NCBI GenBank assembly: GCA_034530615.2
Contig: JAVRCV020000056.1
Coordinates: 1-64,000, forward strand
Length of the DNA stretch: 64,000 nt
Source: Aulosira sp. ZfuVER01
GTDB lineage: Bacteria; Cyanobacteriota; Cyanobacteriia; Cyanobacteriales; Nostocaceae
Direction of reading: 5' to 3'
A program made the position numbers and the translations under genes. Under the pieces are notes generated by a model, which did not search any database, was not told the origin of the DNA, and saw nothing but the letters and a program-made list of their open reading frames with translations. Below are positions 11,601 to 31,645 of this stretch, piece by piece. Within the stretch, counting starts at the first letter, position 1, and each line of letters opens with the position of its first letter.

Positions 11601-12249
11601 AGCGAATCCTCCAAGGTCAACTCGTACCCCAATCGTACCACTCAGGGAAGCTAAGGCTTTACTGTCTCCACAACCAGTAGTAGAACCGTTAGAGGAACCT
11701 GAGATTCCAAGAGTATCTGCCCCTATTCCCCAACCTGTAACACCGCCGCCGTCGTCGCCTCCCGCACCACCGACTCCCTCAAACACTGCCGTTGAACCAA
11801 TACCAACGCAGATACAAGAAGAACCAGATACTTCTGACACTTCTGTTGAAGAAACGCCAAATCTGCCGCCAGCCTCAGACCCTTTCAATGATGATCCCGC
11901 ACCACCGACGCGCTCAAACACTGCCGTTGAGCCAACGCCAACGCAGATACCAGAACAGCCAGAGACTTCAGACACTTCTGTTGAAGAAACGCCAAATCTT
12001 CCGCCGCCAGCCTCAGACCCTTTTAATGATGAACCCCTAGCTTTTTTACCGCGATCGCCAGTAGTAGAGCCCCCCCAGGAGCCTGATTCGCCAGAGATTG
12101 CTGATGCACAAACACAGAACGATTCACCTCAGCCGGATGAAGCACAACCAAGAGTGAAAAAAATTCTGTTGCAAACCATACCCAAAATTATTGTTATTTT
12201 ACCTGCCACACAGATGGCAAAGGGGAGTTTGACATACTCACTGTCGTAA
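8644..12249 (+). CDS. Large putative fibre/receptor-binding protein with carbohydrate-binding-like jelly-roll domains and a Pro/acidic C-terminal tail
   Basis: 1201 aa; LLVNGDF and LRNSLF..W starts typical of CBM4/9-like domains; one copy of the repeat found in 2623..7533; Pro-rich duplicated tail. Confidence 0.55.
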   Translation: MKIRTKYQGGNDPFEGDRILWLRSLPIGANITGATVTLIPANAPQFEETFTFPSNDGGITKTVTPVNSSNSAIKPAVEIDFHARRTVTSVEGSGGVTTLQIDMGGAYTGIADDGTFLTPDKTDFKVNLSSTTAPLPSLTLNKFKLTGDRTNLDITKVTIRSVPTNVSVRLGQLPPVWTKLGELATADTSPNFATVFNAFLATAQQQDGFYQIPLLVHSDTIARLDVELVVEYFIEQRVLPPHLPEVKLAYGFSTLPSLEDTFTTVTLPKEAQAIAGRSSAKIIGEFNPTRIALGPIGDDPTSVPSKTTEINILVSPTQQLAQPLKSDTEIAVTGIDVPLGKIEPGLAGLNISIQSDADGKPSGEVLVSAEVRVDKPLPDQSTWGSATLPTPFRAEATKRYWLILQSQVGEAHWLGTHDTTKDTTGHPGLQSSRDGGLSWRIATVEKAPSPLRALFRLRTVPENFTVPVQLQIGKGADAVRLRLDDFAPLGRIEFSFDFAKPLGEYLSKVDKSSNPCGTGELLVNGDFNQPPHDDATRRLFGFDTASGDSITGTVNLSRGVNLSRERFITLAVNNDKPISIDCAGVNPARTTLEEIVNAINKATKRQIASSEDVLFLSAPSEGRVELLPWRRAGIPQGWEQSTNTQEQLWRIKVPTAADTQERVVAALYAKGTNPVVLAQRIPATSECTYKLQFFFEIEDYPADIGLPEFGRREQFAPARWEVHWLDATGQIIQEEQEAIASYVEFSGQFAVSSRRPKRGIVELLLTAPQNTKQVEIRFVQPPPGLLIVDNVSLQPTSQRLRNSLFQQWQQESRNSPVRLPAGWQNLSGWVDEQSTPKRGAKLRGDGPDDAVIVQTAAVVAGERYELQVNSQFLSASNSDETRSLQQRSRLELHWQNNGSVGTPVIIPLDGRDFPTHTWVGIAPDGATSAEIRIVHPKNQGDLLIESVSLSQAGLVSVPLIFLAEAPGELTVSDWRVAYDLPTPPAPANPPRSTRTPIVPLREAKALLSPQPVVEPLEEPEIPRVSAPIPQPVTPPPSSPPAPPTPSNTAVEPIPTQIQEEPDTSDTSVEETPNLPPASDPFNDDPAPPTRSNTAVEPTPTQIPEQPETSDTSVEETPNLPPPASDPFNDEPLAFLPRSPVVEPPQEPDSPEIADAQTQNDSPQPDEAQPRVKKILLQTIPKIIVILPATQMAKGSLTYSLS
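11761..12033 (+). repeat. Tandem duplication of ~135 bp (45 codons) inside the Pro-rich tail
   Basis: cccgcaccaccgac...cctcagacccttt.aatgatga starts at 11761 and again at 11896. Confidence 0.9.
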
Positions 12250-15889: not shown

Positions 15890-18235
15890 TTAATGCGATA
15901 GACCAATAGCAGCTTGATACAAAGATTGAATCTTTTGCCCATCATGGGGATACTCAACCACAGCACAATTGCAAGCTACTTGAAAGCGATCGCCTCCGGG
16001 AATTGTGAATATTTGTTGGCGAAGGGTAGTTAAAATGTTACCAAGGCGGTCTTTGACTTCTGTTTTTGTTAACCCAGAAATCCCTATTACAAATTCGCCA
16101 TTGCCCCAATAACCGAGAACTTCACCACTGCAAAAGGCTGATTGAAATAGGCTACTCCATCTTTGCAATACTTGGTTTCCAGTTTCATGTCCGTACTTGC
16201 TATTAATTTGGCGTAACTCAGTCACACTCAATATCGCCAAGCAAAGGGAGTGTTGATGTTTCTGGGCTTGAACAATCAACTTTTGTAAGTCGCGGCTAGA
16301 CTGTAACTGATTTGCTAGTCCGGTTAAAGGGTCTTTGGTAGAGAGGGATTTAAGTAAGCGGCTGCGTTCTAAGCGATGGGTAATGCGTGCCAAAAGTTCT
16401 ACCCCGACAACCGGTTTCACCACATAGTCATCTCCGCCAACAGCAAACACCTGCTGCACGGTTTCTATATCCCGGTGTGCGGTGAGAAACACAATTGGTA
16501 ATTCCTGCCATTGGGGATCGGTGCGTACTGCTTGACACAGTTCTATCCCACTGATGTGGGGCATCTCTACATCCAAAATTAATAAATCTGGTGTGGTAGA
16601 TTGCAGTACCTCCCAGAAACGCAGGGGTTCATCTAAGCCCACGATCCGCATACCCCAAGGTTCTAACATGGGGCGCAATGCTGCTAAAACTACAGGATCG
16701 TCATCTACTACTAATACATTTACCCGCAGAGTATGGGTACGCTGTAATAATTGAGATGAACTATCCCAGATTTGAGCAGCTGTTACAGGCTTGGCTAAAA
16801 AACCCCGCGCCCCATACTGAGCCAAAGTTACACGTTCTACTAGTTCATCAGCAGCAGCTATCACAAGAACGGGTATAGGCGGAGTACGGGTTGCTAACTC
16901 TGATAAAAGTGCCAAACTTTCTTGCCGACATCCCACCTCACCTACATTTAGCACCACTAGATCGGGTGATGTAGTTTGCAATAAGTTTTTTGCATCCTCT
17001 AACTTAGTAATTTGCTGCCAGTGAATTCCTAAGTTCTGAACAAGTTGTTGCAACTGAGAACCCAGTTGCGGATCGGGGTCAATTAGTAGCAGTCGCGTAT
17101 TAATTTCTTCTACTATCAAATTGGTAGTTAGATTCTCAACCTTTTGCCCCATCAAGTTGATTAAGTTACCCAACTCTTGAATTTGCGATCGCAACTGACT
17201 TTTTTGGGTTGAAGACAAATCTCCATCTTTGCTGAGAATCTGTTCAATTTCCCTGGCTATTTGAGTACCAGTTTCTTGCTCAAACATTCCCAAAACGCCA
17301 GCTAGCTTATGTGCTTCTTTTTCTGCGGCTTGGCGTAACTCCTGAGTTAAGTTGCTAGAGAGGGCGGCGGCGGCTTGTTGCAGTACTGCCATCCGTTGCT
17401 GCATCAGCCCTGCATATTGATGCCACAACTTACTCATGGCTTGGTTGAACTGCTGTTCAATCTTCGAGATTGGTAATTTTTCTTGCTTTCCTCTAGTTAC
17501 CGTTGTAGGTTCCTGTTTAGTTGATTTCGGGCTTTCCTGCTTTCCTTGCTCACCTGCTTCTTTTACAGATGGGTTTAATCGATATCCCAAACCATAAACG
17601 TTTTCAATCCAGTCTACTGCTCCGGCGGCTTTCAACTTTTGCCGTAAGCCTTTAATGTGCGATTTTACACTTTCTTCTTGAGGCGGATCGTCAAAAGTCC
17701 AGAGATGTTCGATAATGTTCCCGCGGCTGAAAACCCGGGAAGGATTGCGGATAAATAGCTCTAGCAGGCTGTATTCTTTAGGTGTTAAATCTAGAACTTT
17801 ACTGTTAAATGTTACTTCACAACTACTGGGGTCGAGACGCAATCCCCCAATTTCCAATACTAAGGAAACTGGAGTATCAGCCCGACGTAACAGCGCCCGA
17901 ACTCTGGCTTGCAGTTCTCCTAAATCTAAAGGTTTAATCAGATAATCATCTGCACCAGCATCAAGCCCACGAATGCGATCGCTAGTTGCATCTTTTGCAG
18001 TCATTAACAAAATGGGAGTAGAATTGCCACTGGAGCGTAAGCGTTGACATAAGCTAATACCGTCCAGTTTGGGCAATCCCACATCTATTAATATCAAATC
18101 GTAGTTATAACTTTGAGTATATTCCCAACCCACAGATCCATCTTGTGCGATGTCAACCACATAGTGTTGTTGCGTTAGCGAATTCAATAAGATATTTACT
18201 AAAACCTCATCATCTTCGATCAGCAAGATTTTCAT
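15890..18235 (-). CDS. RcaC-like multidomain response regulator: REC-OmpR wHTH-Hpt-REC-REC-degenerate GGDEF
   Basis: MKILLIEDD start (ORF track extends to 18253); LTPKEYSLLELF..IENVYGLGY wHTH; EAHKLAGVLG Hpt; two more REC; DPLTGLAN..GYWGNGEF. Confidence 0.85.
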   Translation of the reverse strand: MKILLIEDDEVLVNILLNSLTQQHYVVDIAQDGSVGWEYTQSYNYDLILIDVGLPKLDGISLCQRLRSSGNSTPILLMTAKDATSDRIRGLDAGADDYLIKPLDLGELQARVRALLRRADTPVSLVLEIGGLRLDPSSCEVTFNSKVLDLTPKEYSLLELFIRNPSRVFSRGNIIEHLWTFDDPPQEESVKSHIKGLRQKLKAAGAVDWIENVYGLGYRLNPSVKEAGEQGKQESPKSTKQEPTTVTRGKQEKLPISKIEQQFNQAMSKLWHQYAGLMQQRMAVLQQAAAALSSNLTQELRQAAEKEAHKLAGVLGMFEQETGTQIAREIEQILSKDGDLSSTQKSQLRSQIQELGNLINLMGQKVENLTTNLIVEEINTRLLLIDPDPQLGSQLQQLVQNLGIHWQQITKLEDAKNLLQTTSPDLVVLNVGEVGCRQESLALLSELATRTPPIPVLVIAAADELVERVTLAQYGARGFLAKPVTAAQIWDSSSQLLQRTHTLRVNVLVVDDDPVVLAALRPMLEPWGMRIVGLDEPLRFWEVLQSTTPDLLILDVEMPHISGIELCQAVRTDPQWQELPIVFLTAHRDIETVQQVFAVGGDDYVVKPVVGVELLARITHRLERSRLLKSLSTKDPLTGLANQLQSSRDLQKLIVQAQKHQHSLCLAILSVTELRQINSKYGHETGNQVLQRWSSLFQSAFCSGEVLGYWGNGEFVIGISGLTKTEVKDRLGNILTTLRQQIFTIPGGDRFQVACNCAVVEYPHDGQKIQSLYQAAIGLSH

Positions 18236-18513
18236 GACTAAACTAGTCTTCAATAACGTGAGTTACCGTCTTGTCTATCGATGCACCTATGACCTGTATC
18301 GTTAATCATAATCTCTATTGGTTCTTTTGTACCATTTTGACAGCGTTAGCGATCGCTTGCGGTTTTTTCATATTTAGTAACACTCTGTGAATGAATTGCG
18401 TGCAAATCCAAAGATTGTATTAGGAAATATTGGCACTTACTCAAAAATATGATAACTAAGTAAAACCTTACATACCAAATATGAAATAGTTCTTGAAGGA
18501 GTAATACCAAGAA

Positions 18514-18972: not shown

Positions 18973-20334
18973 TCATGCTAACCGTTCTGCTACAGTGCGA
19001 TCGCTAGAAAATAGAGAAAGAAAATTATTATTTGTGCGTTTGCGTCCCCGTTTCATTTCTTTTTTGATTTCATCGATGTAAGGGCAAAAATCTACCTGCA
19101 TTGTGTGTCGTTTGGAATTGACATACTGTTTTTGTGTCAGTCGCCGTTCTTTCTCTATATGGCGCAACATTTCTGCTTTGCTTGGTAAACTGACGTTTCC
19201 AGTAATCACTTCAGCAATCCACTTAGATTGCCATTCGGCTAAAGGCATAATTGCACCTATGGGTTGCAACAAACCAATAAAGTAAAGATTGGGATGTTCT
19301 GGGTGTACAACTCGCTTGTACAGGGGAAATTCATTATCTTGGGGATTAATAAACTCTTTGTCAAAAAACGGAAAAGCAATTTTATAACCCGTACCGTAAA
19401 TAATGATATCTATTGGCAGTTCTGTACCATCTTCAAAACGCACGCGATCGCCTGCGAGTTCTTTGATGTTTGGTTTGATTTTTACCCTACCGTAGCCCAC
19501 AAAATTCAGTAATTCTGAGGAGATTGTTGGATGTTCGCTTAAGAATTTATGGGTGGGATTGGGGAAACCATAAGCTGATTGCGGGCCGCGCGCTAGATAT
19601 AACAGGATTTGACCATATAATCTTCGTAAGGCTAATGGCAACGCAAAAAACAAAGGTGTGAGGTAACTATCAAGAGTTCTACCTAAAATGTACTTTGGTA
19701 AAACATAGGCACTGCGACGAGTAGAAAGATAAGTTTGATTTGCCACTCGTGAAGTCTCACAAGCGATATCACAAGCTGAATTACCAACACCTACAACTAG
19801 AACATTTTTGTCATCCATCCCTTCTGGAGTTTTATAGTCGTGGGTGTGCATTGTCTTTCCCGTAAATTCTCCCGGGAATTTAGGCAAATTTGGACACCAG
19901 TGATGGCCGTTAGCCACAATTACTGCACCATAGCGCTGCGTTCGTTCCCCGTTAGCGTTTTTGATAGTGACATCATAAGTACCATCGCCAACTGGCGCGA
20001 CACGACAGACTTGCGTTTTGAAAGTGATTTTGTCTCGAAACCCAAAATGGTCAACATAAGACTCAAAATATTTGAGAACCTGGTTATGATTGGCATACTG
20101 CGGGTAGTCCTCCGGCATGGGAAAATCAGAGTAGGCCATCTGCCCCTTAGATGAATTGATATGCAAGGATTTATAAGCTGAAGACATCCCGTTATCATTC
20201 ATGTAGCGCCAATTACCACCAATCCCAGAACCTTTTTCAAAGCAGTCAAAGGCTATGCCGCGCTCGTGTAAGATTTTAGCAGCAGCAATTCCGGATGAAC
20301 CAGCACCGATAATACAAACGCGATCAAGAATCAT
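18973..20334 (-). CDS. Class B flavin-containing monooxygenase (FMO-like)
   Basis: IIGAGSSG, FTGKTMHTHDYK (FxGxxxHxxxY), VVGVGNSA. Confidence 0.9.
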   Translation of the reverse strand: MILDRVCIIGAGSSGIAAAKILHERGIAFDCFEKGSGIGGNWRYMNDNGMSSAYKSLHINSSKGQMAYSDFPMPEDYPQYANHNQVLKYFESYVDHFGFRDKITFKTQVCRVAPVGDGTYDVTIKNANGERTQRYGAVIVANGHHWCPNLPKFPGEFTGKTMHTHDYKTPEGMDDKNVLVVGVGNSACDIACETSRVANQTYLSTRRSAYVLPKYILGRTLDSYLTPLFFALPLALRRLYGQILLYLARGPQSAYGFPNPTHKFLSEHPTISSELLNFVGYGRVKIKPNIKELAGDRVRFEDGTELPIDIIIYGTGYKIAFPFFDKEFINPQDNEFPLYKRVVHPEHPNLYFIGLLQPIGAIMPLAEWQSKWIAEVITGNVSLPSKAEMLRHIEKERRLTQKQYVNSKRHTMQVDFCPYIDEIKKEMKRGRKRTNNNFLSLFSSDRTVAERLA

Positions 20335-20434
20335 ATTAGTAATTCCTCAAAATTTGTTATTGTTAATCTTTTTTCTTTTAAATTCTCTGCGGTTCGTAAA
20401 AATACAACCTATAAAAGTGATTTGGTATGAATAT

Positions 20435-21310
20435 TTATTGCTCAGAAATGCATAGCTTCTTTTCTATTATCCAACTTGTCAAAAGATTTTGGTAAGCTAG
20501 CGATCGCTCGGCAAAAAATAGATGCCCCATGCCCTGCAATACAATTAGTTCAGCGTTAGGAATCTGGCTAGTAAGAAATTTTGCGTGTGCAAGAAGGATA
20601 ATTGGATCGCGATCGCCACTCAAAATCAGTGTAGGTGCTTGAATTTTGGGTAAGACATGGCTAATATCCATGTCTGCAAACCACTCAAACAAGTCAACAA
20701 TATTGTTGAGATTGTGTTTGACGGCATCTGGATACACTGCTTCTACTGTTGTTTGTAGAGTAGGTGCATTCCAATAAGCTGCGCGATCGCCTGCGTTAAA
20801 ACTACACGCCAACTTGTAGCCAGCTTGATTGAGCATCAACGCTTTGCAGAGAATTTTACAAAGGAATTTACCAATTACACTATTTTGAGTTAGCCTCTGT
20901 AACCATCCCAATAAACCGTGCCATTGTCCTTGAGAAAAACCAGAAATGCAGAAAACACCTTTTATTTGTTCGGGAAAATTAGCCGCGAGGTTTAAAGCAG
21001 CAAACCCACCTGTTGAATAACCAACTAAAGCCACTGGTTGCTTACCTACCAATTTGTGAATTGCACTCATCAGGATATCGGCTAGCATATCTGCTGTTAA
21101 TAACTCAGGTTGATAGGAGTCGGGATAATGGCCAGGCAAACTGAGGGAATACCAAGGAAGATGTTCTCTAACGAGGGGTGGTAAGTTTGCTATCCAAAAA
21201 TTAGCAGACAGCGTTATTCCATGCAGAAAAATAATTGGTATTCCTGGTTTATTTTGATTTGCACCAAGTGATATTAATTGATGTTCGCCAACTTCAATGT
21301 ACTGTGACAT
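20435..21310 (-). CDS. Alpha/beta hydrolase (possible ACP thioesterase)
   Basis: FLHG, GYSTGG nucleophile elbow, GDRDP, GMGH. Confidence 0.85.
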   Translation of the reverse strand: MSQYIEVGEHQLISLGANQNKPGIPIIFLHGITLSANFWIANLPPLVREHLPWYSLSLPGHYPDSYQPELLTADMLADILMSAIHKLVGKQPVALVGYSTGGFAALNLAANFPEQIKGVFCISGFSQGQWHGLLGWLQRLTQNSVIGKFLCKILCKALMLNQAGYKLACSFNAGDRAAYWNAPTLQTTVEAVYPDAVKHNLNNIVDLFEWFADMDISHVLPKIQAPTLILSGDRDPIILLAHAKFLTSQIPNAELIVLQGMGHLFFAERSLAYQNLLTSWIIEKKLCISEQ

Positions 21311-21767
21311 GAGAAGTAACTAATTCTTTTTCTGGCTGTATCTTACTTACACGCTGCCAAATTAAGCTACCAACAATCTCAATACCATTGACAAGCATAG
21401 GAGGTGTACTCAAAGTAAGTTGTTCGCCATTTAATTGTACAAACCGGACTTGATTTACACCTACCCAGTTTTGGAAAAAACTCACTTCCACATGATGAAT
21501 AACTCGTTCACCTTGAATTTCATAAGTTCCACAATAAGAAACATAACTGTCAGTCGCAGCCACTTTTTCTTCCACAGTACCCGCTGCAATATCTCCGGCT
21601 TGAAATTGCGGACGGTTCGCTTTCATCATTGCTACAGAAACATAGCCATTATCTGTATAAATAATGTAGCCACTGGGGTTATCTCCTAAAGGATAAAAAA
21701 CTTGACCAGTTTCAGTTCTAGTTTCACAGCTAAGAAGTTTCCAAGTACCTACCAGATTATTTTGCAT
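21294..21767 (-). CDS. Lipocalin-like domain protein
   Basis: LVGTWKLLS..PLGDNPSGYIIYTDNGYVS..YVSYCGTY..NWVGVNQVR. Confidence 0.8.
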   Translation of the reverse strand: MQNNLVGTWKLLSCETRTETGQVFYPLGDNPSGYIIYTDNGYVSVAMMKANRPQFQAGDIAAGTVEEKVAATDSYVSYCGTYEIQGERVIHHVEVSFFQNWVGVNQVRFVQLNGEQLTLSTPPMLVNGIEIVGSLIWQRVSKIQPEKELVTSHVTVH

Positions 21768-21822
21768 TTTGTTGAATATTCTATTTGCTAATTCTGTTTG
21801 ATGAGTGAAAGCCTGTTAACTT

Positions 21823-22707
21823 TTAATCAATGCGGCGAAAAGTTAAGCGTAAAAGAAGTAAATCTCCAGTTAAAAAGCCTAGAAGTGCCAGATAAAGATA
21901 ACGTTCGTAGCGATCGAAAACAGTTTTACCAACCAAATTGATGATTTCTGTACGCTTGCTTCTGAAGTTAGTTAACCATGCTTGGAGAGTGCGGACATAA
22001 TCTAGGCGATCGTTGCGAACTGTAATTACTTCAAAAATACCTTCTGCAGCGGCGGTAATTTCTGTGAGTCGCGGAGAATCAGATTCGGGAAATATTTCTT
22101 GATTAGCAAACTGAGCGCCTAAACTTTTTTGTACTTCTTCTGGTTTTCTCTTCCCATAGGCGATAGTTTGAATGGACATCGAACCCCCGGGATTCAACCA
22201 TTCATAACAGCGATTAAAGAAGGTACGATAAACATCAATTTTTTCCTGGCTGGATAATTCTGGTTTGACAAAATGTTCAAAAGCACCAATAGAAATAATG
22301 GCATCAAAAGGCTGTATTGGTGAGTAGTTTAACCAGCTTTCGAGATTAACTTCAATTTGAGGATGCTTGTTAGCAGAAATCCAATTCTTTTGAGCTTCAC
22401 TTAATGTTAGTCCTACAGCTTGCTCAACTCCATGCACATCTACTAAACGTTTGAGTACTGTTCCCCAACCACAACCGATATCTAAAACTCGCTTGGCATT
22501 CTTGGCTTTAGCTTGATTAATATGAAAATCAACTTTTCTAATTTGAGCTAATTCCAGTGCTTCCTCTGGTTCGCCTTCTTCCCAGATAGCACAAGAATAA
22601 ATCATAGTACTATCTAGCCAAAGTTGATAAAAATCATTGCCTACATCGTAATGGTGTTGGATTGCTTGAGGCGAAGCCCCAGGAGTTGCGGTGTTTGCAG
22701 TAGTCAT
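21823..22707 (-). CDS. Cyclopropane-fatty-acyl synthase-family SAM methyltransferase
   Basis: IQHHYDVGNDFYQLWLDSTMIYSCA, VLDIGCGWG, SIGAFEHF, IFP. Confidence 0.9.
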   Translation of the reverse strand: MTTANTATPGASPQAIQHHYDVGNDFYQLWLDSTMIYSCAIWEEGEPEEALELAQIRKVDFHINQAKAKNAKRVLDIGCGWGTVLKRLVDVHGVEQAVGLTLSEAQKNWISANKHPQIEVNLESWLNYSPIQPFDAIISIGAFEHFVKPELSSQEKIDVYRTFFNRCYEWLNPGGSMSIQTIAYGKRKPEEVQKSLGAQFANQEIFPESDSPRLTEITAAAEGIFEVITVRNDRLDYVRTLQAWLTNFRSKRTEIINLVGKTVFDRYERYLYLALLGFLTGDLLLLRLTFRRID

Positions 22708-22749
22708 GATGTTTATGTTTGTGATTAATCGATATGTTGAGCTAAAAAT

Positions 22750-23061
22750 CTAGAGCGCAATTTTAAGTTCTGTTGTGCCTGCTGCTAAACGTTGTGACAA
22801 AACTTCGATACTGGGTAAGTCATATAATAAAGTTGGCGATAAATCCTGTCCGATTAAACTTTCTAAATGGGAAATCAAACTGACTGATGATAATGAATCT
22901 AAACCGTATTCATTAAACCGAGCTTTAATATTAACTTGATGTGGCTCAACTTCTAAAATTTCGGCAATATAAGCAACTATCGATTCTTGAATTACCTCTG
23001 CACTCAGAGTATTTTTTTGAGAGTCTAAGGCATTATTAGTAACAGTACTGGTGAGTTCCAT
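22750..23061 (-). CDS. Acyl carrier protein (JamC-like)
   Basis: FNEYGLDSLSS phosphopantetheine site, LSPTLLYDLPSI; ATG at 23061 (ORF track 23067). Confidence 0.85.
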   Translation of the reverse strand: MELTSTVTNNALDSQKNTLSAEVIQESIVAYIAEILEVEPHQVNIKARFNEYGLDSLSSVSLISHLESLIGQDLSPTLLYDLPSIEVLSQRLAAGTTELKIAL

Positions 23062-23107
23062 CTTCAAAACCTTATTGAGTATCAGTTGAATTGCTTTGAT
23101 ACTTTAC

Positions 23108-23142
23108 AGATTAGAGATAAATCGGGGAGAACTAGGGGAGAA
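23108..23142 (-). promoter_or_regulatory. Conserved promoter box copy 1 (upstream of ACP sub-operon)
   Basis: minus strand TTCTCCCCTAGTTCTCCCCGAT-TTATCTC-TAATCT. Confidence 0.8.
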
Positions 23143-23268
23143 GAATACCAGGTGTAGATTTTAGATTTGGATTGCAAGTAATCGCCTTAAAGCTAAAAGC
23201 CCACATAGGTGGGCTAAATGTGAAAAACAACTGTTATGCTCTGCGCAACCGTATAAGAAGTTACATCA

Positions 23269-24282
23269 TTAGTCAAAAGCTTGAGAATTCCATAAACGCC
23301 GCCAAGCTTCTGTAATTGTTAATTGATTATAGTCTTGAGGAAAGTGCTTTTTCAGCAGATCGCTGACTAATGGATAGTAAGAAGGATGCATTGCTGGAAA
23401 TAGATGATGTTCGGTGTGATAAGAGAAATTGTTATGAATCAAATTGAACAAGGGAGGTACTGTTACAGATGTAGTACCTTGCACAGAATTATTTTGCGCT
23501 TTTATAGGATTGAGGAAATGATTCGTCGCTACATAAATGACTTCAATCACTGAAGCAATCAATATAGGTAATATCCCAACAAATAAGTACTTTAACCAGT
23601 TACATTGAACGGCTGAAAAAATTATAGTCTGGATTAAAATGATAATGCCTGTTTCAATAATAATTGAGAATTTTTCTTTGAGAGTATATGGTACTTGATA
23701 AGGAACTATATACAGCTTGCTTTTTGGTGAGATAAAAACAGCTATGAAATTACGCAAGATGTAAAAGACAAAGTGAATATAGGCGAAAGGATTAATGAAT
23801 CTTAGTAGTAATTTGTTTTTCTGCGGATAGAAGATCCAAGTATAAATCCATTTAATACAAGTTTTTTCTGAAGTTAACCATCGCCGATCGGGGTCTTTAA
23901 ATGTTGCTGCATTAGGATGATGCGTTCGATGATGAATATGTATCCACATCGTTAGAGGGATAAAATTTATTCCCCACACTAACACTTCTAGAAAATGTCT
24001 CTGCCAAGATTTTGCCATAACTGAGCCATGACTCAAATCGTGACCAAAAAAAACTAGACCTGGCAAGCAATTTCCTGACAATAAACTTGCAAGTAAAAAT
24101 ATCCAAATATTATTGGAGTAGTGTGTTAAGGTAATTGCTGAGATAAATAGCGAAAAATTAGCCAGAAAATACCAGAGATAACTTGGCTTTTTTTGAAAAG
24201 CTTCTTTAGGTAAAAAAGGACGGATGGTTTGAATATAGTATTGATCTGTATGTGTTAGGGGCTGTTGCTCTGTCGTATTCAT
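23269..24282 (-). CDS. Membrane fatty acid desaturase
   Basis: His boxes HDLSH, HIHHRTHH, HTEHH. Confidence 0.9.
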   Translation of the reverse strand: MNTTEQQPLTHTDQYYIQTIRPFLPKEAFQKKPSYLWYFLANFSLFISAITLTHYSNNIWIFLLASLLSGNCLPGLVFFGHDLSHGSVMAKSWQRHFLEVLVWGINFIPLTMWIHIHHRTHHPNAATFKDPDRRWLTSEKTCIKWIYTWIFYPQKNKLLLRFINPFAYIHFVFYILRNFIAVFISPKSKLYIVPYQVPYTLKEKFSIIIETGIIILIQTIIFSAVQCNWLKYLFVGILPILIASVIEVIYVATNHFLNPIKAQNNSVQGTTSVTVPPLFNLIHNNFSYHTEHHLFPAMHPSYYPLVSDLLKKHFPQDYNQLTITEAWRRLWNSQAFD

Positions 24283-24341
24283 AATTAAATTCTGCTTCGC
24301 TGATTATAGATTTGCTTTTGAAGAGCTAGAACTACACTTAT

Positions 24342-25310
24342 TTATAGCAATCGCACGCTTTTTGATTGCATCATTTCCGGTGTAGGTTGATTCACATCCC
24401 AAACTAAACCTAGACTCTGCAATACCACAATTACCCAATAGCCAATGTCAATTTGCCACCATTGCAACCCAAATTTAGCTGAGTTTTGAAAAGCGTGATG
24501 ATTGTTGTGCCAAGATTCGCCAAAAGTAGGTAAAGCCAGCCAAAGATTATTTGTGCTTTTTTCTTTGGTATCAAAACTACGAGTACCATAAAGATGGCAA
24601 ATTGAGTTAATGCACCAAGTTGTGTGCTGTCCTAAATATAGACGAATAACTCCACCCCACAAAAAACCATGCCAAGCACCAATCCAATTTCCTGTAAGAA
24701 TAAAAGCGACAACCGCCGGAAAAACCAGACCCAAAATCACCCAAACAAAATACAGTTGGTTAAGCTTGCAAATTGTTTTGTCTCGTAGCAGTTCCGGTGC
24801 ATAGTAAAGTGGGTTGGGATAATCGTACTCAACTTTCCACCACAGATGAGCGTGCCAAAATCCGGAAAGCTGATTGCGCCAACCTGTACCGTGTAAATGT
24901 GGAGAATGGGTATCCCCAACCTCATCACTATAGCGATGGTGGTGTCTGTGGTTAGCAACCCAAGAAAGCACAGGGCCTTCCGCACCTGTGGAACCGAGAA
25001 TTACTAGCAGAATCCGAATAATTGGATGTGCTTGAAAAGCACGATGGGTAAAGTAGCGGTGATAGCCAACGGTAATTCCTACAGAGGTGAGAAACCACAT
25101 CCCTAGAAACACTGTGATATCAACTATACCGATTGGCTTGCCCCATAAACAGGCGATCGCTAAAATAAACCCAACAAAAGGTAGAACATCACACAATAAA
25201 AAATGACGCTTTTGCAACAACTTAATGTAGCTGTTGCTCATGGTTTTCTTCTTTAATAAATCAGTAGCACGATTAATTGATGCAGATTCAACGCTAATAC
25301 TGGTTTCCAT
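24342..25310 (-). CDS. JamB-like acyl-ACP desaturase/acetylenase (delta-9 family)
   Basis: HRYFTH, HRHHH, HNNHH boxes; RHFLL and YPNPLYYAPELLRDKTI segments recall JamB. Confidence 0.8.
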   Translation of the reverse strand: METSISVESASINRATDLLKKKTMSNSYIKLLQKRHFLLCDVLPFVGFILAIACLWGKPIGIVDITVFLGMWFLTSVGITVGYHRYFTHRAFQAHPIIRILLVILGSTGAEGPVLSWVANHRHHHRYSDEVGDTHSPHLHGTGWRNQLSGFWHAHLWWKVEYDYPNPLYYAPELLRDKTICKLNQLYFVWVILGLVFPAVVAFILTGNWIGAWHGFLWGGVIRLYLGQHTTWCINSICHLYGTRSFDTKEKSTNNLWLALPTFGESWHNNHHAFQNSAKFGLQWWQIDIGYWVIVVLQSLGLVWDVNQPTPEMMQSKSVRLL

Positions 25311-25350
25311 ATTCCCAACTTTGATAACTGATGCAAGATTTATGCAGAGC

Positions 25351-25434
25351 TAGGGTGTGTTATGCCGTAGGCTAACGCACCATCAAAAATTCAAGCTGCG
25401 TCGGTGCGTTGCGCTGCGCGACAACACACCCTAC
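25351..25434. repeat. Palindromic dispersed repeat (REP/SDR-like); second copy 56168-56244, half copy 39179-39209
   Basis: tagggtgtgttatgccgtaggctaacgcacc...ggtgcgttgcgctgcgcgacaacacaccctac at both loci. Confidence 0.85.
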
Positions 25435-25439
25435 TGCGA

Positions 25440-27206
25440 TTATGCAGATAAAGGATGATTTACACTTGCAACTGGCGCTAAACTTGGCAAAATCTCTAAT
25501 TTCTGAGCTAAAAACTGCTCTCTGCAAGCATAGCGCTGGATTTTACCGCTAGAAGTTTTCGGGAGAGTGGCTGTTTTAATCAACGCTACAGTATGAATCT
25601 GTAACTCATGCTGTTGTAAAACCGCTTGCCGAATTTTCCCTACCACTTCTGCAACGTTGAGATGGCGCAGATATTGTCGCTCAACTTCTTGCACAATTAC
25701 TAGCCGTAGTACATTTTCGCGCTCAATGGTAAAAGCTGCACCAGCGCCAAGTCTGAGGGATGGATGAGCTTGAGCAACTGTTAATTCGATATCGTGGGGA
25801 TAATAGTTGCGTCCCCGAATAATGATTAAATCTTTGATACGTCCTGTAACGAAGAGTTCGCCTTGATGTAAAAAGCCTAAGTCTCCTGTGCGTAAAAATG
25901 GCCCTTGTTGGCTATCTGCCAAGTATGCTTGGAAATATTCTTTTGTAGCTTCGGGATTATTCCAGTATCCTTGAGCGACACTAGCACCTGACACCCAAAT
26001 TTCTCCGACTTCATTGGGCGAACATGGAGTTAAAGTTTCTGGATTGACAATGACAACTTGCAGATTTGCTAAACTTTGCCCACAACTCACAAGATTTTGG
26101 CTATCAAGATGATTATCGCTAGGAATCACTTGATGCTGTTTCAAAGCTTTTTCCGCTACCGTTTCCACAATGGGTAAAGCGGCTTTATCTCCCCCAGCAA
26201 TAATCAGCGTAGTTTCTGCCATCCCGTAACAGGGATAAAACGCTTCGCGACGGAAACCACAAGGTGTAAATAGAGTAGCAAACTGCTCCATTGTTTCTGC
26301 GCGTACGGGTTCCGCACCATTAAAAGCAACTTCCCAACTGCTCAAATCGAGAGTGGCACGTTGTTCTGGGGTAATTTTACGCACACATAAATCATAAGCA
26401 AAGTTGGGGCCGCCACTGGTAGTTGCTTGGTAACGCGAAATCGCTTGCAACCAGTAAAAAGGCTTTTGTAAGAAAATCATTGGCGGCATGAGGAAGACGG
26501 AAAAACCACCGTAAAGCGGTTGTAAAATACCGCCAATCAAGCCCATGTCATGGTAAGCAGGTAGCCAAATAACACCCCGACTCTCTGGAGAATGCTGAAA
26601 CGATTGATAAATTAAAGAGGAATTGTGCAGTAAATTAGCGTGGCTGATCGTCACACCTTTTGGTGTGGAGGTGGAGCCAGAAGTGTACTGTAAGAAGGCG
26701 AGGGTATCACTACTAACTTCCACTCGTCGCCAATCTTGCGCCCAATTGTTATCTAGGTTATCGGTAGCTTGCCATTGTAGCGATCGCAAATCCGCAAACT
26801 CTTGTAACTGCGGCTGAACCAGGGCTAAAACCGCTTTAGTTGTGAGTGCAATCTTAGCTTGAGCATTCGCTGCGATCGCTTGTAGTCGTGAGATAGATTG
26901 ATTGGGGCGCGGAGGATAAGCCGGAACCGCAACTGCACCTGCATACAAACAGCCAAAGAAAGCCGCAGCAAAATCTAATCCTGGTGGATAAAGTAATAAA
27001 ACTCGCTCTTGGTAGGCTTTTTGGCTTTGCAAATATGCTGCGATCGCTTGGGCTTTTTGATGTAATTCCCTATATGTAAAACTGCTATCTTCAGTAATCC
27101 CATCTGCAAGGAAGGTATAAGCTGTTTGCTGCGGCTGATGGCTGGCTCGATACTCCAACAGATCTACCAAAGTAGTCACGCTCGCATCGATTGATGTATG
27201 TCTCAT
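25440..27206 (-). CDS. Fatty acyl-AMP ligase (FAAL)
   Basis: AFLQYTSGSTSTPKG, WLPAYHDMGLIG, YPCYGMAE, LRTGDLG, PKTSSGKIQR. Confidence 0.92.
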   Translation of the reverse strand: MRHTSIDASVTTLVDLLEYRASHQPQQTAYTFLADGITEDSSFTYRELHQKAQAIAAYLQSQKAYQERVLLLYPPGLDFAAAFFGCLYAGAVAVPAYPPRPNQSISRLQAIAANAQAKIALTTKAVLALVQPQLQEFADLRSLQWQATDNLDNNWAQDWRRVEVSSDTLAFLQYTSGSTSTPKGVTISHANLLHNSSLIYQSFQHSPESRGVIWLPAYHDMGLIGGILQPLYGGFSVFLMPPMIFLQKPFYWLQAISRYQATTSGGPNFAYDLCVRKITPEQRATLDLSSWEVAFNGAEPVRAETMEQFATLFTPCGFRREAFYPCYGMAETTLIIAGGDKAALPIVETVAEKALKQHQVIPSDNHLDSQNLVSCGQSLANLQVVIVNPETLTPCSPNEVGEIWVSGASVAQGYWNNPEATKEYFQAYLADSQQGPFLRTGDLGFLHQGELFVTGRIKDLIIIRGRNYYPHDIELTVAQAHPSLRLGAGAAFTIERENVLRLVIVQEVERQYLRHLNVAEVVGKIRQAVLQQHELQIHTVALIKTATLPKTSSGKIQRYACREQFLAQKLEILPSLAPVASVNHPLSA

Positions 27207-27943
27207 TTGACGCCTACCAATTCAGGTTTAGCAGTAATTTTCTCACCTTGCCACTTAATAGCAGCTTCCAGTTCTGAACCTAAGTAGGGACGAATATTTA
27301 ATTCAGCCCGAATTTCTTCTAAAGGTTTTTCCCATAATGTATTCCAAGGAACGCCAAACAGAGGTTGTGCTTGTTGTCCCATAATCCAGCCGCGCACAAA
27401 AGCTTCCATGTGCTGACTGCACAAATCCATATCTTCAATCGCAGTTTTGAGGAAATTTTTCGCCAGTAACACCACCCAAAAACGAGCAGGATAAAACTGA
27501 GTCAAAGAAAATGTCTCTACTTGAATTTCTCCAGCTTTGTCTGTATTGCTACCAGTAACCACGTGCCAGATATCATGCGTTTCCATCACATAATTGAACA
27601 AATATCTATAGGTATCTGATGTATGTTCGCGCACTGGCGGCGGAGTTAATCTGTTTCTCAGCATGTGATCGGCGTAAATATAGCCAAAGGTGTTGGTAGG
27701 TAATTGATGGAGTTGCTGTAAATCAATCTTACCCAGGAGCTTTTTTTCAGCTAGGGCTATTCTTCCCCGTTCCGTGCGAGAGAGAAACTGCACAATTTGA
27801 TTGAGACTCTTGGGATCGATTGCTGCATCAGATAAATTGCCACCTGCGCCAAAGGAACCGTAAGGTAGCTGGACAATGCGCATGAAGCGATAGGCGAATA
27901 TCAGCTTTTTTAGCTCTTTTTTGAGATTTTGTAGAATTTGCAT
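27203..27943 (-). CDS. Coq4-family protein
   Basis: LPTNTFGYIYA, ETHDIWHVVTG..GE (HDxxH-x-E metal motif); 4-bp overlap with FAAL. Confidence 0.8.
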   Translation of the reverse strand: MQILQNLKKELKKLIFAYRFMRIVQLPYGSFGAGGNLSDAAIDPKSLNQIVQFLSRTERGRIALAEKKLLGKIDLQQLHQLPTNTFGYIYADHMLRNRLTPPPVREHTSDTYRYLFNYVMETHDIWHVVTGSNTDKAGEIQVETFSLTQFYPARFWVVLLAKNFLKTAIEDMDLCSQHMEAFVRGWIMGQQAQPLFGVPWNTLWEKPLEEIRAELNIRPYLGSELEAAIKWQGEKITAKPELVGVK

Positions 27944-27976: not shown

Positions 27977-28011
27977 AAGTTAAAGAGCGATCGGGGAGAA
28001 CTAGGGGAGAA
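27977..28011 (-). promoter_or_regulatory. Conserved promoter box copy 2 (upstream of coq4-FAAL operon)
   Basis: minus strand TTCTCCCCTAGTTCTCCCCGAT-CGCTCTT-TAACTT. Confidence 0.8.
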
Positions 28012-28065
28012 ATGAGAATCAGATGAGAAGAAGATGAGAGAGTTAAGATTGTAGGAGCACTTCAG

Positions 28066-28094
28066 ATCCCCGACTTCTTGAAGAAGTCGGGGAT
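28066..28094. repeat. Perfect 14-bp inverted repeat (dispersed palindrome or terminator)
   Basis: atccccgacttctt-g-aagaagtcggggat. Confidence 0.75.
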
Positions 28095-28122
28095 ATAGGC
28101 AACCATTCTTGCTTAAGTTATA

Positions 28123-28515
28123 TCAACTCTCTATTTCGCTATAAGCCCAACCCAATACTTCACTGATTTGCCCTGCCAGTTTTAAAGGACGAAAAGGCTT
28201 GGCAAATATAGCGGCTACATCTAATCCAGTAAAGCAGTCTTGATCTGAATCTTGAACTTTGGCAGTGAGTAAAATTACTGGAATTTGCTGAGTAACAGGG
28301 TTAGCCTTTAATTTTTGCAAGGTGGCACGCCCATCCATATCAGGCATCATCATATCTAGCAGGATGACATCAACTTGTGAGTTGGCAGCTATATTCAACG
28401 CTTCCCGTCCAGAACAAGCCGTCAACACATTCCAACCAGCACCCAATTCTAATCCCAATTTAGCGATCGCCTGCACATCTTCTTCATCATCAACAATCAA
28501 GATATTTCTGCTCAT
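28123..28515 (-). CDS. Single-domain response regulator (RcaF/CheY-like)
   Basis: MSRNILIVDD..ILLDMMMPDMDG..AKPF; the longer 28581 start overlaps the promoter box. Confidence 0.85.
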   Translation of the reverse strand: MSRNILIVDDEEDVQAIAKLGLELGAGWNVLTACSGREALNIAANSQVDVILLDMMMPDMDGRATLQKLKANPVTQQIPVILLTAKVQDSDQDCFTGLDVAAIFAKPFRPLKLAGQISEVLGWAYSEIES

Positions 28516-28567
28516 GGTGCCATCCTTGCATGATATGTGATGCTGACTAGCTTGATTACCTGGAGCT

Positions 28568-28602
28568 ATTCTAAAATGCAATCGGGGAGAAGTGGGGGAG
28601 AT
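28568..28602 (-). promoter_or_regulatory. Conserved promoter box copy 3 (upstream of single-REC gene)
   Basis: minus strand ATCTCCCCCACTTCTCCCCGAT-TGCATTT-TAGAAT. Confidence 0.8.
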
Positions 28603-28620: not shown

Positions 28621-30150
28621 CTAATTAGAGACAGCTAAAGGTAAAAGTACATAAAAGGTGCTACCTTCCCCTAAAACGCTTTGAACCCAGATTTTACCGT
28701 TATGTTGCTGCACAATATTCCGGCAAATCGCCAGTCCTAAACCTGTTCCGCCTTTGTTGCGAGAATCAGATGCATCTACCTGCTGAAAGCGCTCAAAGAT
28801 AATTTGTAATTTATCTTCAGGAATTCCTCGCCCTTCATCTCGAATAGTAATCAACAGGTAGCTGGGTGTATCTTTTTGAGACTCAACACCTTGATTTTCT
28901 GAAAGTGTCGCACCGATCCAAACAGTATCCCCTGGTTCCGAAAACTTAATCGCATTGCTGAGTAAGTTAGTCAAGGTTTGCAAAAGGCGATCGGAATCTG
29001 CCCAAAGTTCAACTGCTAAAGGATTAACAATTAGTTTGACTTGGAGTTTATCTGCCATTGCTTGCATGGCTTCTGTTGCTGTAATCAGCAGTTCAGCAGC
29101 GTTGCACTTGCCCATACGCATGAAGATTTTGCCCGATTTCATCCGTTCTAAATCGAGAATATCGTTCACCAAACGAATTAGACGTTCCGTGTTATTGGTA
29201 GCAATGCTCAAAACTTTTTGTCCCTGTGCAGTTAAAGTTCCTAGTTGTCCTGCACCCAATAAATCTAATGCTCCCATTGTTGAAGTTAAAGGTGTACGTA
29301 ACTCATGACTGACTAAAGAAATAAACTCGTTTTCTAGGCGTTTGCGTTCGGTGATGTCATTGGCAATTAATAAAGCGCATGGTACTCCCGCTAGATCAAT
29401 TAATTCGATAGAAAGTAAGATGGTTTTGATTTCGGCAGATTTGGTAGAAAATTCAAATTCCAGATTGTACAGTGAACCACTATCAGGTAAACGTTGAATT
29501 GTTTGGGCGATCGCTGCTGTATTTTTACCTAAATCGAGTTCTGCAACTGTATGTCCAATTACCTCTTCTAAACAATAGCCACTCATTTTTAAGAAGCTGG
29601 GATTGACATCAAGAACCCGCGCTTCCGAAATTGTGGCGATCACGATCGGGTTAGGACTAGAACGAAAAACTTTAGCAAACTTCTCTTCGGCTTTAGCGCG
29701 CTCTCTTATTTCTTGCTGTAACTGCTGATTTTGCGCTTGGAGTTGCTTTTGGAGTTGGCGAATCGTCAAGTGATTTTCAATTCTGGCTAAAACTTCTTCT
29801 AGTTGAAAAGGCTTAGTAATATAGTCAACCCCGCCAACTGCAAACGCCTTCACCTTATCCAACACATCACCCAAAGCGCTGATAAAAATTACCGGAATCT
29901 CACAAGTGCGATCGCTTGTCTTTAATTGTTGACAAACTTCATAACCATTCATCTCTGGCATATTCACATCTAGCAAAATCAAATCAGGAGGAACTGCATT
30001 TGCTCCCCGCAACCCTGTAGAACCTTTAGTCACGCTGCGAACTTTATATCCTTGTTCGGTCAGCATCGCAGATAAAAGATTTAGATTTTCCGGTGTATCA
30101 TCAATTACCAATATGTCTGCTTTCGGAGAGTTGGATAATTGTTTGGGCAT
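28621..30150 (-). CDS. Hybrid histidine kinase REC-PAS-HisKA-HATPase
   Basis: ILVIDD..DVNMP; VSHELRTPL; NLLSNAIKF; GGTGLGLAIC. Confidence 0.92.
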   Translation of the reverse strand: MPKQLSNSPKADILVIDDTPENLNLLSAMLTEQGYKVRSVTKGSTGLRGANAVPPDLILLDVNMPEMNGYEVCQQLKTSDRTCEIPVIFISALGDVLDKVKAFAVGGVDYITKPFQLEEVLARIENHLTIRQLQKQLQAQNQQLQQEIRERAKAEEKFAKVFRSSPNPIVIATISEARVLDVNPSFLKMSGYCLEEVIGHTVAELDLGKNTAAIAQTIQRLPDSGSLYNLEFEFSTKSAEIKTILLSIELIDLAGVPCALLIANDITERKRLENEFISLVSHELRTPLTSTMGALDLLGAGQLGTLTAQGQKVLSIATNNTERLIRLVNDILDLERMKSGKIFMRMGKCNAAELLITATEAMQAMADKLQVKLIVNPLAVELWADSDRLLQTLTNLLSNAIKFSEPGDTVWIGATLSENQGVESQKDTPSYLLITIRDEGRGIPEDKLQIIFERFQQVDASDSRNKGGTGLGLAICRNIVQQHNGKIWVQSVLGEGSTFYVLLPLAVSN

Positions 30151-30386: not shown

Positions 30387-30421
30387 GTCTCCCCCAGTTC
30401 TCCCCGATTGTTTTTTATTTT
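30387..30421 (+). promoter_or_regulatory. Conserved promoter box copy 4
   Basis: GTCTCCCCCAGTTCTCCCCGAT-TGTTTTT-TATTTT upstream of 30461. Confidence 0.75.
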
Positions 30422-30460: not shown

Positions 30461-31006
30461 ATGACAAATCAACAAATATCTTCTTTACCAAAAACCGCCC
30501 GTCTTTTTGCTGCTTTGGGTTTAACTCTCAGTGCTAGCCTTTTTGTTTACCCTAGTACCAGTCAAGCAGGTAAAAATGGTGGGGCGATACCTGCTGAACT
30601 CCAAGGTGAGTGGCTTTACGGTCGAATTTCTTCTATCCAATACCAAGACCAAATTACAGGACAGTCAGCAGCACCGAATGGTTCGAGCGATCGCTTCCTA
30701 GTCGCAGCTAACGGTAGCTACCAGCGACAAAGGTTAATTCAAATCAACACCTACAACTGTGCGTCTAACCTCTTCATACAAGAGAAAGGTAAAGTTAGCG
30801 CTGACGATCGACAACTCACCTTCCAACCGACTGAAAGCTCATCTAAAGGGCAAATCTGCAATACTGGTCGCACTTACTCTGGAAAGAACACAGCCAAGCC
30901 TGAAACCTACGCTTGGTCAATCTCTAAAAACGAATACGGACAAGAAGTCCTCTTGCTTCAGACTACCGATGGTCAGGGTCAAGCTCATTATGGACGACCT
31001 CAGTAG
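30461..31006 (+). CDS. Secreted beta-rich hypothetical protein (lipocalin-like fold possible)
   Basis: Signal peptide ending SQA; IPAELQGEW motif; two Cys. Confidence 0.7.
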   Translation: MTNQQISSLPKTARLFAALGLTLSASLFVYPSTSQAGKNGGAIPAELQGEWLYGRISSIQYQDQITGQSAAPNGSSDRFLVAANGSYQRQRLIQINTYNCASNLFIQEKGKVSADDRQLTFQPTESSSKGQICNTGRTYSGKNTAKPETYAWSISKNEYGQEVLLLQTTDGQGQAHYGRPQ

Positions 31007-31101: not shown

Positions 31102-31136
31102 TTCTCCCCTAGTTCTCCCCGATTGTTTCTTAATCT
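31102..31136 (+). promoter_or_regulatory. Conserved promoter box copy 5
   Basis: TTCTCCCCTAGTTCTCCCCGAT-TGTTTCT-TAATCT upstream of 31163. Confidence 0.8.
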
Positions 31137-31162: not shown

Positions 31163-31645
31163 ATGATTCACCATATTTCTTTTGCTGTTAACAACCCTCA
31201 ACACGTTGCCCAAGTTTTGGCAGAAATTTTAAAAGCAGAAGCTGTTCCATTTCCTCCTCACCCAGGTAGCTATATGGTTATACCTTTTGATGAACATGGT
31301 ACAGCCATTGAACTTTATCCTTTAGGTACTCAATTAGAACCTGGTGAAGGTGATGGACAATGTGCATTTGTACAAAATTCTATTTCTCCTAAGTTCGTAG
31401 ATATTCATGCAGCTATTTCTGTACCTGCTAGTCAAGAAGAAATTCAAAAAATTGGTGCGCGTGAAGGTTGGCGTGTTGTACGCTGTACCCGTGAAACTTT
31501 TTTTGATGTCATTGAGTTCTGGGTAGAAAACAGACTTATGATCGAACTGCTAACACCAGAAATGGCAACTCAATACGTAAAATTTACAACTCACCCAGAA
31601 ACTCGAAAAATATTTACGGCAGAACCTGCTTTAGCCACAGCATAA
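31163..31645 (+). CDS. VOC/glyoxalase-like hypothetical protein
   Basis: MIHHISFAV, GTAIELYP, HAAISV, VIEFWVENRLMIELL pattern. Confidence 0.65.
   Translation: MIHHISFAVNNPQHVAQVLAEILKAEAVPFPPHPGSYMVIPFDEHGTAIELYPLGTQLEPGEGDGQCAFVQNSISPKFVDIHAAISVPASQEEIQKIGAREGWRVVRCTRETFFDVIEFWVENRLMIELLTPEMATQYVKFTTHPETRKIFTAEPALATA

Follow-up and report, generated by a model that had tools for sequence, protein, structure and literature searches.

A putative stand-alone fatty-acid operon in Aulosira sp. ZfuVER01 joined by a direct-repeat box to a nostolanthin-family signalling module

Among the closest described systems is the fischerazole pathway, for which the available part of PMC13548996 describes FshA, which loads C12–C16 acids, and FshF, which methylates a cis-alkene bound to the acyl carrier protein (ACP) and gives vinyl-branched and cyclopropane products in vitro. 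Another is nostolanthin, whose two-component module is reported, in the accessible text of bioRxiv 10.64898/2026.08.14.744816, to be conserved in 57 strains and to show induction by host contact; the same nostolanthin (ripp4) reporter responds to nostoclide and nostovalerolactone, according to the accessible text of PMC9324945. The accessible passages of these two nostolanthin sources (10.64898/2026.08.14.744816; PMC9324945) describe neither a promoter box nor an RcaC-like regulator. Here, we analyzed a 64,000-nt stretch of DNA from Aulosira sp. ZfuVER01 (contig JAVRCV020000056.1, or C56; hereafter "the window"), whose source genome measures 8.03 Mb and is 99.99% complete. The window contains a nine-gene fatty-acid operon that is real, conserved and uncharacterised. 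It represents a novel, stand-alone form of the fsh-type cassette, and a previously unnoticed direct-repeat box ties it to the signalling module of the nostolanthin family. The numbers preceded by G, C and L are our handles for genomes, contigs and loci.

The nine-gene operon and its fsh-type core

All nine genes are on the − strand, from 27943 to 18973, and follow one another in the order given here, with the basis of each assignment in brackets.

27203..27943, − strand: Coq4-like, lipid-binding metalloprotein whose gene opens predicted transcription unit 1 (Pfam Coq4; 6E12 match; motif)
25440..27206, − strand: fatty acyl-AMP ligase (FAAL) (Pfam, NCBIfam; 61% to the FAAL of the fsh-order cluster of G690)
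24342..25310, − strand: desaturase 1, delta-9-type acyl-ACP desaturase outside the JamB clade (Pfam, trees, His box)
23269..24282, − strand: desaturase 2, of another subfamily and dispensable (Pfam; NCBIfam DesB delta-10 best, below cut-off)
22750..23061, − strand: ACP, with its ATG at 23061 (Pfam PP-binding; GLDS)
21823..22707, − strand: short methyltransferase that belongs to the cyclopropane fatty acid synthase family (CFAS/CMAS), dependent on S-adenosylmethionine (SAM), FshF-like group (Pfam; 52% to the FshF-position gene of G690; tree)
21294..21767, − strand: lipocalin-like beta-barrel, predicted lipid carrier (Pfam Lipocalin_5; model; fold match)
20435..21310, − strand: alpha/beta serine hydrolase, predicted release enzyme (Pfam; GYSTG)
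18973..20334, − strand: class B flavin monooxygenase (FMO) with an FMO-type fingerprint (Pfam; PDB match; motif)

The Pfam matches were Coq4 (E 7e-29), AMP-binding, FA_desaturase (twice), PP-binding and CMAS (E 2e-62), followed by Lipocalin_5, Abhydrolase_1 and FMO-like (E 2e-100), and the top NCBIfam matches of the AMP-binding gene were fatty acyl-AMP ligases. Pfam detected no polyketide synthase (PKS), nonribosomal peptide synthetase (NRPS) or halogenase gene among the nine, and a ketosynthase (KS) query of the genome matched contigs C8, C79, C70 and C49 only, leaving contig C56 without a KS. The open reading frames (ORFs), Pfam and the KS query thus agree with the first-pass annotation, which had described nine co-oriented genes of this span and order without a ketosynthase or NRPS; it had overlooked the five promoter-like direct repeats and the phosphorelay genes around the operon. 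The ORFs were listed from 70 aa upwards, a length that exceeds rubredoxin size. The catalytic and binding motifs are intact (ACP GLDS, hydrolase GYSTG, Coq4 HDxxH-x11-E, FMO FxGxxxHxxxY and the desaturase His boxes), and the ratio of nonsynonymous to synonymous substitution rates (dN/dS) was 0.06–0.31 for each gene present in pairwise comparisons with seven orthologous loci. The FAAL has no other match above 39% in its own genome. Contig sets from four RNA libraries (one study; share of words 0.05; an approximately 90% identical relative) cover all nine genes, although we did not count them as proof of expression because DNA carry-over is possible. Many unrelated RNA contigs end in short intergenic repeats at 25340–25435 and 28060–28095, as dispersed cyanobacterial repeats would.

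The operon is conserved in the 10 genomes examined, which span two orders. Among the 14 other genomes that represent the genus, 6 carry a close orthologue of the methyltransferase (89–96%), as does one more of 388 family genomes; another family contributed one (G055), and another order contributed G994, found via desaturase 1 among 331 genomes of the class. G994 keeps all nine genes at 45–74% identity in a rearranged order, with desaturase 2 moved and the hydrolase set apart by transposase-like fragments. Every orthologous cluster retains the hydrolase gene, either within it or next to it. Of the 10 loci, 6 have an intact desaturase 2; the gene is interrupted in frame by a stop codon in G003, and the loci of G008 (searched genome-wide), G055 and G561 (both judged at the locus) lack it. 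Metagenome scans found nothing with desaturase 2 alone and 80 distant loci with its alignment, 8 of which had a second matching gene and none of which had the cluster. The first-pass annotation had not recognised this gene combination; likewise, our literature search, which covered few subscription papers, found no characterised cluster that matched and no paper on this gene set or box. Two side observations concern these loci. In the place of desaturase 2, an ORF of 185–194 aa lies on the opposite strand in G008 (L021:8743-9300, no Pfam match) and G055 (L027:10887-11471), two genomes that belong to different families. Downstream of the FMO gene in G994 (L261:2006-5404), there are three co-oriented genes that appear by eye to encode a B12 radical-SAM protein, a short-chain dehydrogenase/reductase (SDR) and a GDSL lipase.

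The FAAL/desaturase/ACP/methyltransferase core is, judged from its sequence, a fischerazole-type (FshA/D/E/F) starter cassette, present here without a PKS. G690 holds a cluster that matches the published fshA–N order, and, with positions assigned by gene order, the core is 61%, 47% and 52% identical to its genes at fsh positions (FAAL, 61%; methyltransferase, 52%). Relatives of the methyltransferase at E ≤ 1e-70 occur in 43 of 389 genomes of the family. We fetched 27 of the 36 non-orthologous loci, and FAAL, desaturase and methyltransferase stood together in all 27. A KS was nearby in 16 of these 27 cassettes vs 0 of 7 orthologous loci; one of the 27 had a Coq4 gene, and none had a match to the lipocalin, FMO, hydrolase or desaturase 2. 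PKS-free cassettes of desaturase, ACP, methyltransferase, P450, hydrolase and FAAL are carried by Thalassospira and Pseudonocardia plasmids, and a PKS-free version with two desaturases by a Burkholderia plasmid; therefore, stand-alone products are supported as a class. At the bicarbonate site, all 54 ingroup methyltransferases, including the window enzyme and the FshF-position gene, have Glu/Gln/Tyr, whereas the six long-form outgroup enzymes (6/6) have His where the ingroup has Gln. We considered this His-to-Gln change as a marker of non-cyclopropane chemistry and rejected it, because the accessible text of PMC3132707 shows that cotton cyclopropane synthases also carry Gln at this His site.

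Several of the related cassettes have unusual neighbours. L127:8477-13882 (G664) combines FAAL, desaturase, ACP and methyltransferase with DUF1365, an amine-oxidase-type gene and a second CMAS beside a PKS, and resembles furan-fatty-acid genes within an assembly-line cluster. In L028:6152-14017 (G025) and L124:524-13219 (G705), the cassette is linked to an aminotransferase (class I/II) and an SDR, together with either a Rieske protein or a glycosyltransferase plus a phosphatidylserine decarboxylase; the arrangement resembles a sphingolipid-like route. Three tandem FshF-like methyltransferases precede PKS/NRPS genes in L121, L128, L141 and L032, and three tandem delta-9-type desaturases with up to two ACPs precede a methyltransferase and a KS in L117 and L143. 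Another cassette without a PKS, L122:5933-17587 (G531), contains genes for two thioesterases and a GMC oxidoreductase in addition to a Coq4-like and an asparagine-synthase-like gene.

Among the accessory proteins, the Coq4-like protein matched Alr8543 best in the PDB (6E12, E 4.5e-72). In the Alr8543 structure an oleic acid chain adjoins two metal ions, and the plasmid neighbourhood of Alr8543 is not biosynthetic. The eukaryotic COQ4 is an oxidative decarboxylase, according to the available part of bioRxiv 10.1101/2023.11.13.566839. The model of the lipocalin had a predicted local distance difference test score (pLDDT) of 94, and its best fold match was the lipocalin 4GZV (Z 12.2; root-mean-square deviation 4.0; 114 aligned); its top fold matches were uncharacterised barrels and gave no enzyme role.

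The direct-repeat box and the signalling genes

The box is a direct repeat with a period of 11 bp. Five exact copies were found in the 8.03 Mb, all between 23121 and 31123 of the window, and the reversed control gave 0. The five boxes and one hairpin are as follows.

23121..23140, − strand: direct-repeat box and −10 hexamer, predicted internal promoter for acp-cfa-lipocalin-hydrolase-fmo (motif search, contexts)
27990..28009, − strand: direct-repeat box and −10 hexamer upstream of coq4 (motif search, contexts)
28581..28600, − strand: box upstream of the stand-alone receiver gene (motif search)
30389..30408, + strand: box upstream of the 181-aa gene (motif search)
31104..31123, + strand: box upstream of the 160-aa gene (motif search)
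23198..23215, − strand: terminator-like hairpin between the two predicted transcription units (position suggestive; 13 such hairpins vs 11.9 in shuffles)

The box is kept at the same positions elsewhere: with ≤ 2 mismatches, there were 41 copies in the window and nine orthologous stretches vs 1 in 117 other loci. The exact box was present in 81 of 389 genomes of the family (control, 0). The start of a TAnnnT motif is a constant 7 nt behind the box in every distinct context (101 of 101), at positions outside the search pattern; these contexts come from 39 stretches, taken from Nostocaceae and one genome of the same order, and are related rather than independent. A generic sigma-70 scan performed at chance (34 found vs 34.0 expected). 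The box, which is repeated in the locus, is predicted to be an on-switch promoter element. In G006, the two halves of the operon are on different contigs; the split falls exactly between the two predicted units, at the hairpin before the internal box, and each half keeps its box, which suggests two transcription units. Elsewhere, a variant of the box made of three units (L129:2461, G528) is located upstream of a PfaA/Hgl-like PKS gene, and boxes outside the signalling locus (L231:8752, L232:6392 and L253:12933) precede a small signal-peptide-like ORF and a 359-aa gene without a Pfam family, and a CARDB/subtilase gene.

The operon lies between the receiver gene, the REC-PAS kinase and the multi-PAS kinase on one side and the RcaC-like regulator on the other.

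15890..18253, − strand: RcaC-like regulator (REC, OmpR-type winged helix, Hpt, REC, REC, GGDEF), predicted box binder (domains; co-occurrence)
28123..28581, − strand: stand-alone receiver protein, likely start ATG 28515 (Pfam; orthologues)
28621..30150, − strand: REC-PAS-HisKA-HATPase kinase (domains; 86% to a gene beside a nostolanthin-motif cluster)
30461..31006, + strand: 181-aa protein with a signal-peptide-like N-terminus by eye (no Pfam; weak Atlas Lipocalin_4 lead, score 0.87, carried by 29% of members)
31163..31645, + strand: 160-aa conserved protein (no Pfam; weak Atlas glyoxalase/VOC lead only, scores 0.87–0.88)
31837..36558, − strand: multi-PAS, GAF, hybrid histidine kinase, predicted sensor (domains; 65–74% to kinases beside lanthipeptide clusters)

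We infer that the RcaC-like regulator binds the box. It holds the only DNA-binding domain among the locus proteins scanned, and related winged-helix regulators bind short promoter repeats, as the accessible text of PMC5737509 describes. Its N-terminal 231 residues were matched at the preset cut-off in 71 of 81 box-positive vs 42 of 308 box-negative genomes. At a stricter, post hoc cut-off (∼77% identity), the counts were 68 of 81 vs 5 of 308, and, within genus g53, 48 of 54 vs 5 of 73. In the genus of the source genome, the box occurred in 10 of 10 genomes with a regulator of ≥ 89% identity and in 0 of 4 with relatives of 75–77%. The PAS domains of the kinase were the best-matching stretch in 0 of the 60 PDB matches listed, and the fold model of the 160-aa protein had a pLDDT of 44.

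The signalling genes also occur with other cargo. In G002, G010 and G014, the signalling genes and boxes are present without the operon. In other genera, LanM, HlyD and small precursor genes are flanked by these same signalling genes, with a box in front of every unit, and the precursors of L244 and L246, behind the same box, carry the published nostolanthin core motif. The REC-PAS kinase at the nostolanthin-motif locus is 86% identical to that of the window and the multi-PAS kinase ∼71%; kinases that adjoin lanthipeptide clusters of genera g53, g186 and g196 share 65–74% identity with the multi-PAS kinase of the window. The window kinases probably correspond by name to NltR1/NltR2. The source genome itself gave no match to a nostolanthin-type precursor, and its LanM relatives (41% and 27%) are on other contigs. 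The signalling locus therefore looks like a sensor socket with swappable cargo, and it is probably older than its fatty-acid cargo; elsewhere it would drive nostolanthin-type lanthipeptide genes. In many genomes, this locus also contains a boxed Cupin_2 gene (L236:14844-15296 and orthologues) that is absent from the window. Farther away in the window, a 1201-aa ORF (8644–12249) has a proline-rich, repeated C-terminus; an orthologous locus has, by eye, phage-baseplate-like neighbours.

Predicted product and alternative explanations

On balance, we consider it probable that the nine genes form a stand-alone pathway to a small fatty acid with a SAM-derived carbon, likeliest a cyclopropane, and oxygen, and that the neighbouring phosphorelay switches it via the box. 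Every chemical step is deduced from the behaviour of the protein families. The FAAL would load a fatty acid, probably of medium-to-long chain, on the ACP, and desaturase 1 would make a cis alkene. The FshF-like methyltransferase would then transfer a SAM-derived CH2 to form a cyclopropane or else a vinyl branch, which FshF is also able to make; the cyclopropane is favoured as the family default. Desaturase 2 may add an optional second double bond, the FMO may oxygenate the chain (epoxide or hydroxyl), and the serine hydrolase would release the acid. The lipocalin and the Coq4-like protein are expected to handle lipid, and the latter may also be catalytic. For control, the multi-PAS kinase and the REC-PAS kinase would relay through the receiver protein to the RcaC-like regulator, whose winged helix would bind the repeat, which has an 11-bp period and would stand in for a −35 element, and activate the coq4-faal-des1-des2 and acp-cfa-lip-hydrolase-fmo units and three neighbouring genes.

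The first-pass annotation had likewise expected a small free fatty acid, and its PKS-free, ACP-based tailoring with a dedicated release enzyme agrees with our analysis; its JamABC/alkyne label does not. FAAL-desaturase-desaturase-ACP is an order that resembles polyyne cores. Desaturase 1 is 52% identical to the UniRef "hex-5-enoyl-ACP acetylenase" of Moorena producens JHB, which we took as JamB, and it could accordingly be read as a JamB-like acetylenase yielding a fatty acid with an alkyne or ene-yne group, which methylenation might turn into a cyclopropene. However, in both phylogenies (a FastTree of 172 rows and an IQ-TREE of 59 rows hand-picked from them), desaturase 1 fell in its own supported clade, apart from the JamB clade, and its nearest relatives with known context are methyltransferase-linked. 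The third His box was QNNHH, a signature derived in this analysis, in 30 of 33 JamB-clade rows and 0 of 139 others, and is HNNHH in desaturase 1; similarly, desaturase 1 has QH..W.INS, where 29 of the 33 have DN..L.[IV]NS. The operon also has two desaturases, whereas polyyne clusters require three as an essential triad, according to the available part of PMC8406139. We regard an alkyne product as quite improbable. A furan-type or otherwise rearranged product seems equally improbable to us. Here, methylation with a double-bond shift and a diene made by desaturase 2 would let the FMO close a furan or other oxygen ring. The route to furan fatty acids relies on the same trio of functions (methylase, second desaturase and oxygenase), and in the Trichocoleus and Leptolyngbya records, desaturase 1, the methyltransferase and desaturase 2 stay adjacent (accession numbers two apart). 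A route of the UfaM/D/O type is nevertheless unlikely: DUF1365, which we take to be the UfaO oxygenase, had 0 matches in the nearly complete genome, there is no amine-oxidase-type desaturase among the nine genes, and the 4 loci (of 10) in which desaturase 2 is absent or broken keep the FMO under purifying selection, so the FMO needs no diene.

Two further alternatives, both unlikely, concern the fate of the acyl-ACP and the control of the operon. The modified acyl-ACP might be passed on in trans as a starter, either for a PKS/NRPS or for membrane or glycolipid synthesis, without a free product. The KS near 16 of the 27 related cassettes, the four KS-bearing contigs of the genome and the status of this FAAL as the genome's only one of its type are consistent with such a role, whereas the hydrolase that accompanies every orthologous cluster, the lack of the box at any other locus of the genome and the recurrence of PKS-free cassettes with release enzymes in other phyla argue against it. 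Marginally less unlikely, the box could be a real promoter element that is read by a paralogous regulator or an alternative sigma factor, with the placement of the operon incidental. The genome has several paralogous RcaC-like systems, the operon is not beside the regulator in G055, G561 and G994, and the co-occurrence could stem from linkage on one mobile block; however, those three unlinked operons keep the box and their genomes keep a regulator orthologue, boxes flank the regulator gene itself in G994, and the 10/10 vs 0/4 division within the source genus follows the identity of the regulator.

Several observations weigh against the stand-alone, box-switched pathway that we prefer. Other PKS loci in the genome could accept the acyl-ACP. 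The methyltransferase forms its own clade and is not sister to the FshF-position gene, so ring and branch cannot be read from the sequence. The JamB clade is nested, with 97% support, in the same larger group as desaturase 1, a group that excludes the FshD-position desaturase, and desaturase 1 may for this reason still be an acetylenase. In FMO-type enzymes, the oxidised atom is often N or S and not carbon; the best PDB match of this FMO (8Z12, E 1e-92, followed by ancestral FMO5) was not traceable to a paper. Regarding control, the box before coq4 in G994 has one mismatch and no TAnnnT at the usual offset, and is not among the 101 contexts; 10 of the 81 box-positive genomes had no regulator match; seven candidates were scored per genome for co-occurrence among kin that are not independent; and the source genome has at least five paralogous RcaC-like regulators.

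A wider interpretation, which we put forward tentatively and consider rather unlikely, is that Nostocales share a sense-and-make socket, composed of PAS kinases, an RcaC-like activator and one promoter box, with swapped cargos. The strained, oxygenated fatty acid made in this lineage would itself diffuse as a signal that the PAS kinase reads and that is amplified via the boxed receiver gene. This would constitute a cyanobacterial autoinducer circuit, in which a Coq4-family protein might act as a new enzyme of fatty-acid modification.

Comparison with known systems

The box is a concrete candidate for a control element of the nostolanthin family, whose cis-element and DNA-binding activator the available texts do not describe. 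Across 81 genomes, it would mark the genes under this module, and it may provide a means of activating a cryptic cluster. The operon itself offers an ACP-dependent enzyme of the CFAS family in a compact, PKS-free system and gives a bacterial Coq4 homologue a place within a defined lipid pathway. It is also a candidate for the route to free cyclopropane fatty acids of cyanobacteria, for which the accessible part of the review PMC10088813 names no gene cluster.

Compared with the alkyne-forming systems, the operon resembles the JamABC terminal-alkyne cassette in uniting FAAL, desaturase and ACP, with a desaturase 52% identical to JamB, but differs in its canonical His boxes, its position outside the JamB clade, its methyltransferase partner and the lack of a PKS acceptor here. 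The seven-gene polyyne cassette of bacteria, as presented in the available part of PMC8406139, likewise has FAAL, desaturases, ACP and hydrolase without a PKS; it has three desaturases, whereas the present operon has two, plus a CFAS methyltransferase. The box resembles sites of OmpR/PhoB-type activators, which are also 11-bp-period direct repeats at a fixed distance before a −10 hexamer. The RcaE-RcaF-RcaC and CcaS-CcaR systems of chromatic acclimation (accessible part of PMC5737509) similarly comprise a kinase, a receiver and a winged-helix regulator acting on short promoter repeats; in contrast, the sensor here is a PAS array whose GAF domain showed, by eye, no cysteine motif for bilin binding, and the targets are biosynthetic genes.

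The two closest systems remain fischerazole and nostolanthin. Like FshA/FshD/FshE/FshF (available part of PMC13548996), the core places FAAL, membrane desaturase, ACP and short CFAS-family methyltransferase in one unit, and the window methyltransferase shares with the FshF-position gene the Gln at the bicarbonate His site. Unlike the fischerazole cluster, as far as that text describes it, there is no PKS, NRPS, halogenase or P450 here; the operon adds the Coq4-like protein, second desaturase, lipocalin, serine hydrolase and FMO, and its methyltransferase and desaturase 1 fall in clades separate from the fsh ones. The nostolanthin (nlt/ripp4) family has the same signalling genes and the same box upstream of its precursor and transporter genes, but the cargo here is a fatty-acid operon instead of Nif11/LanM genes.

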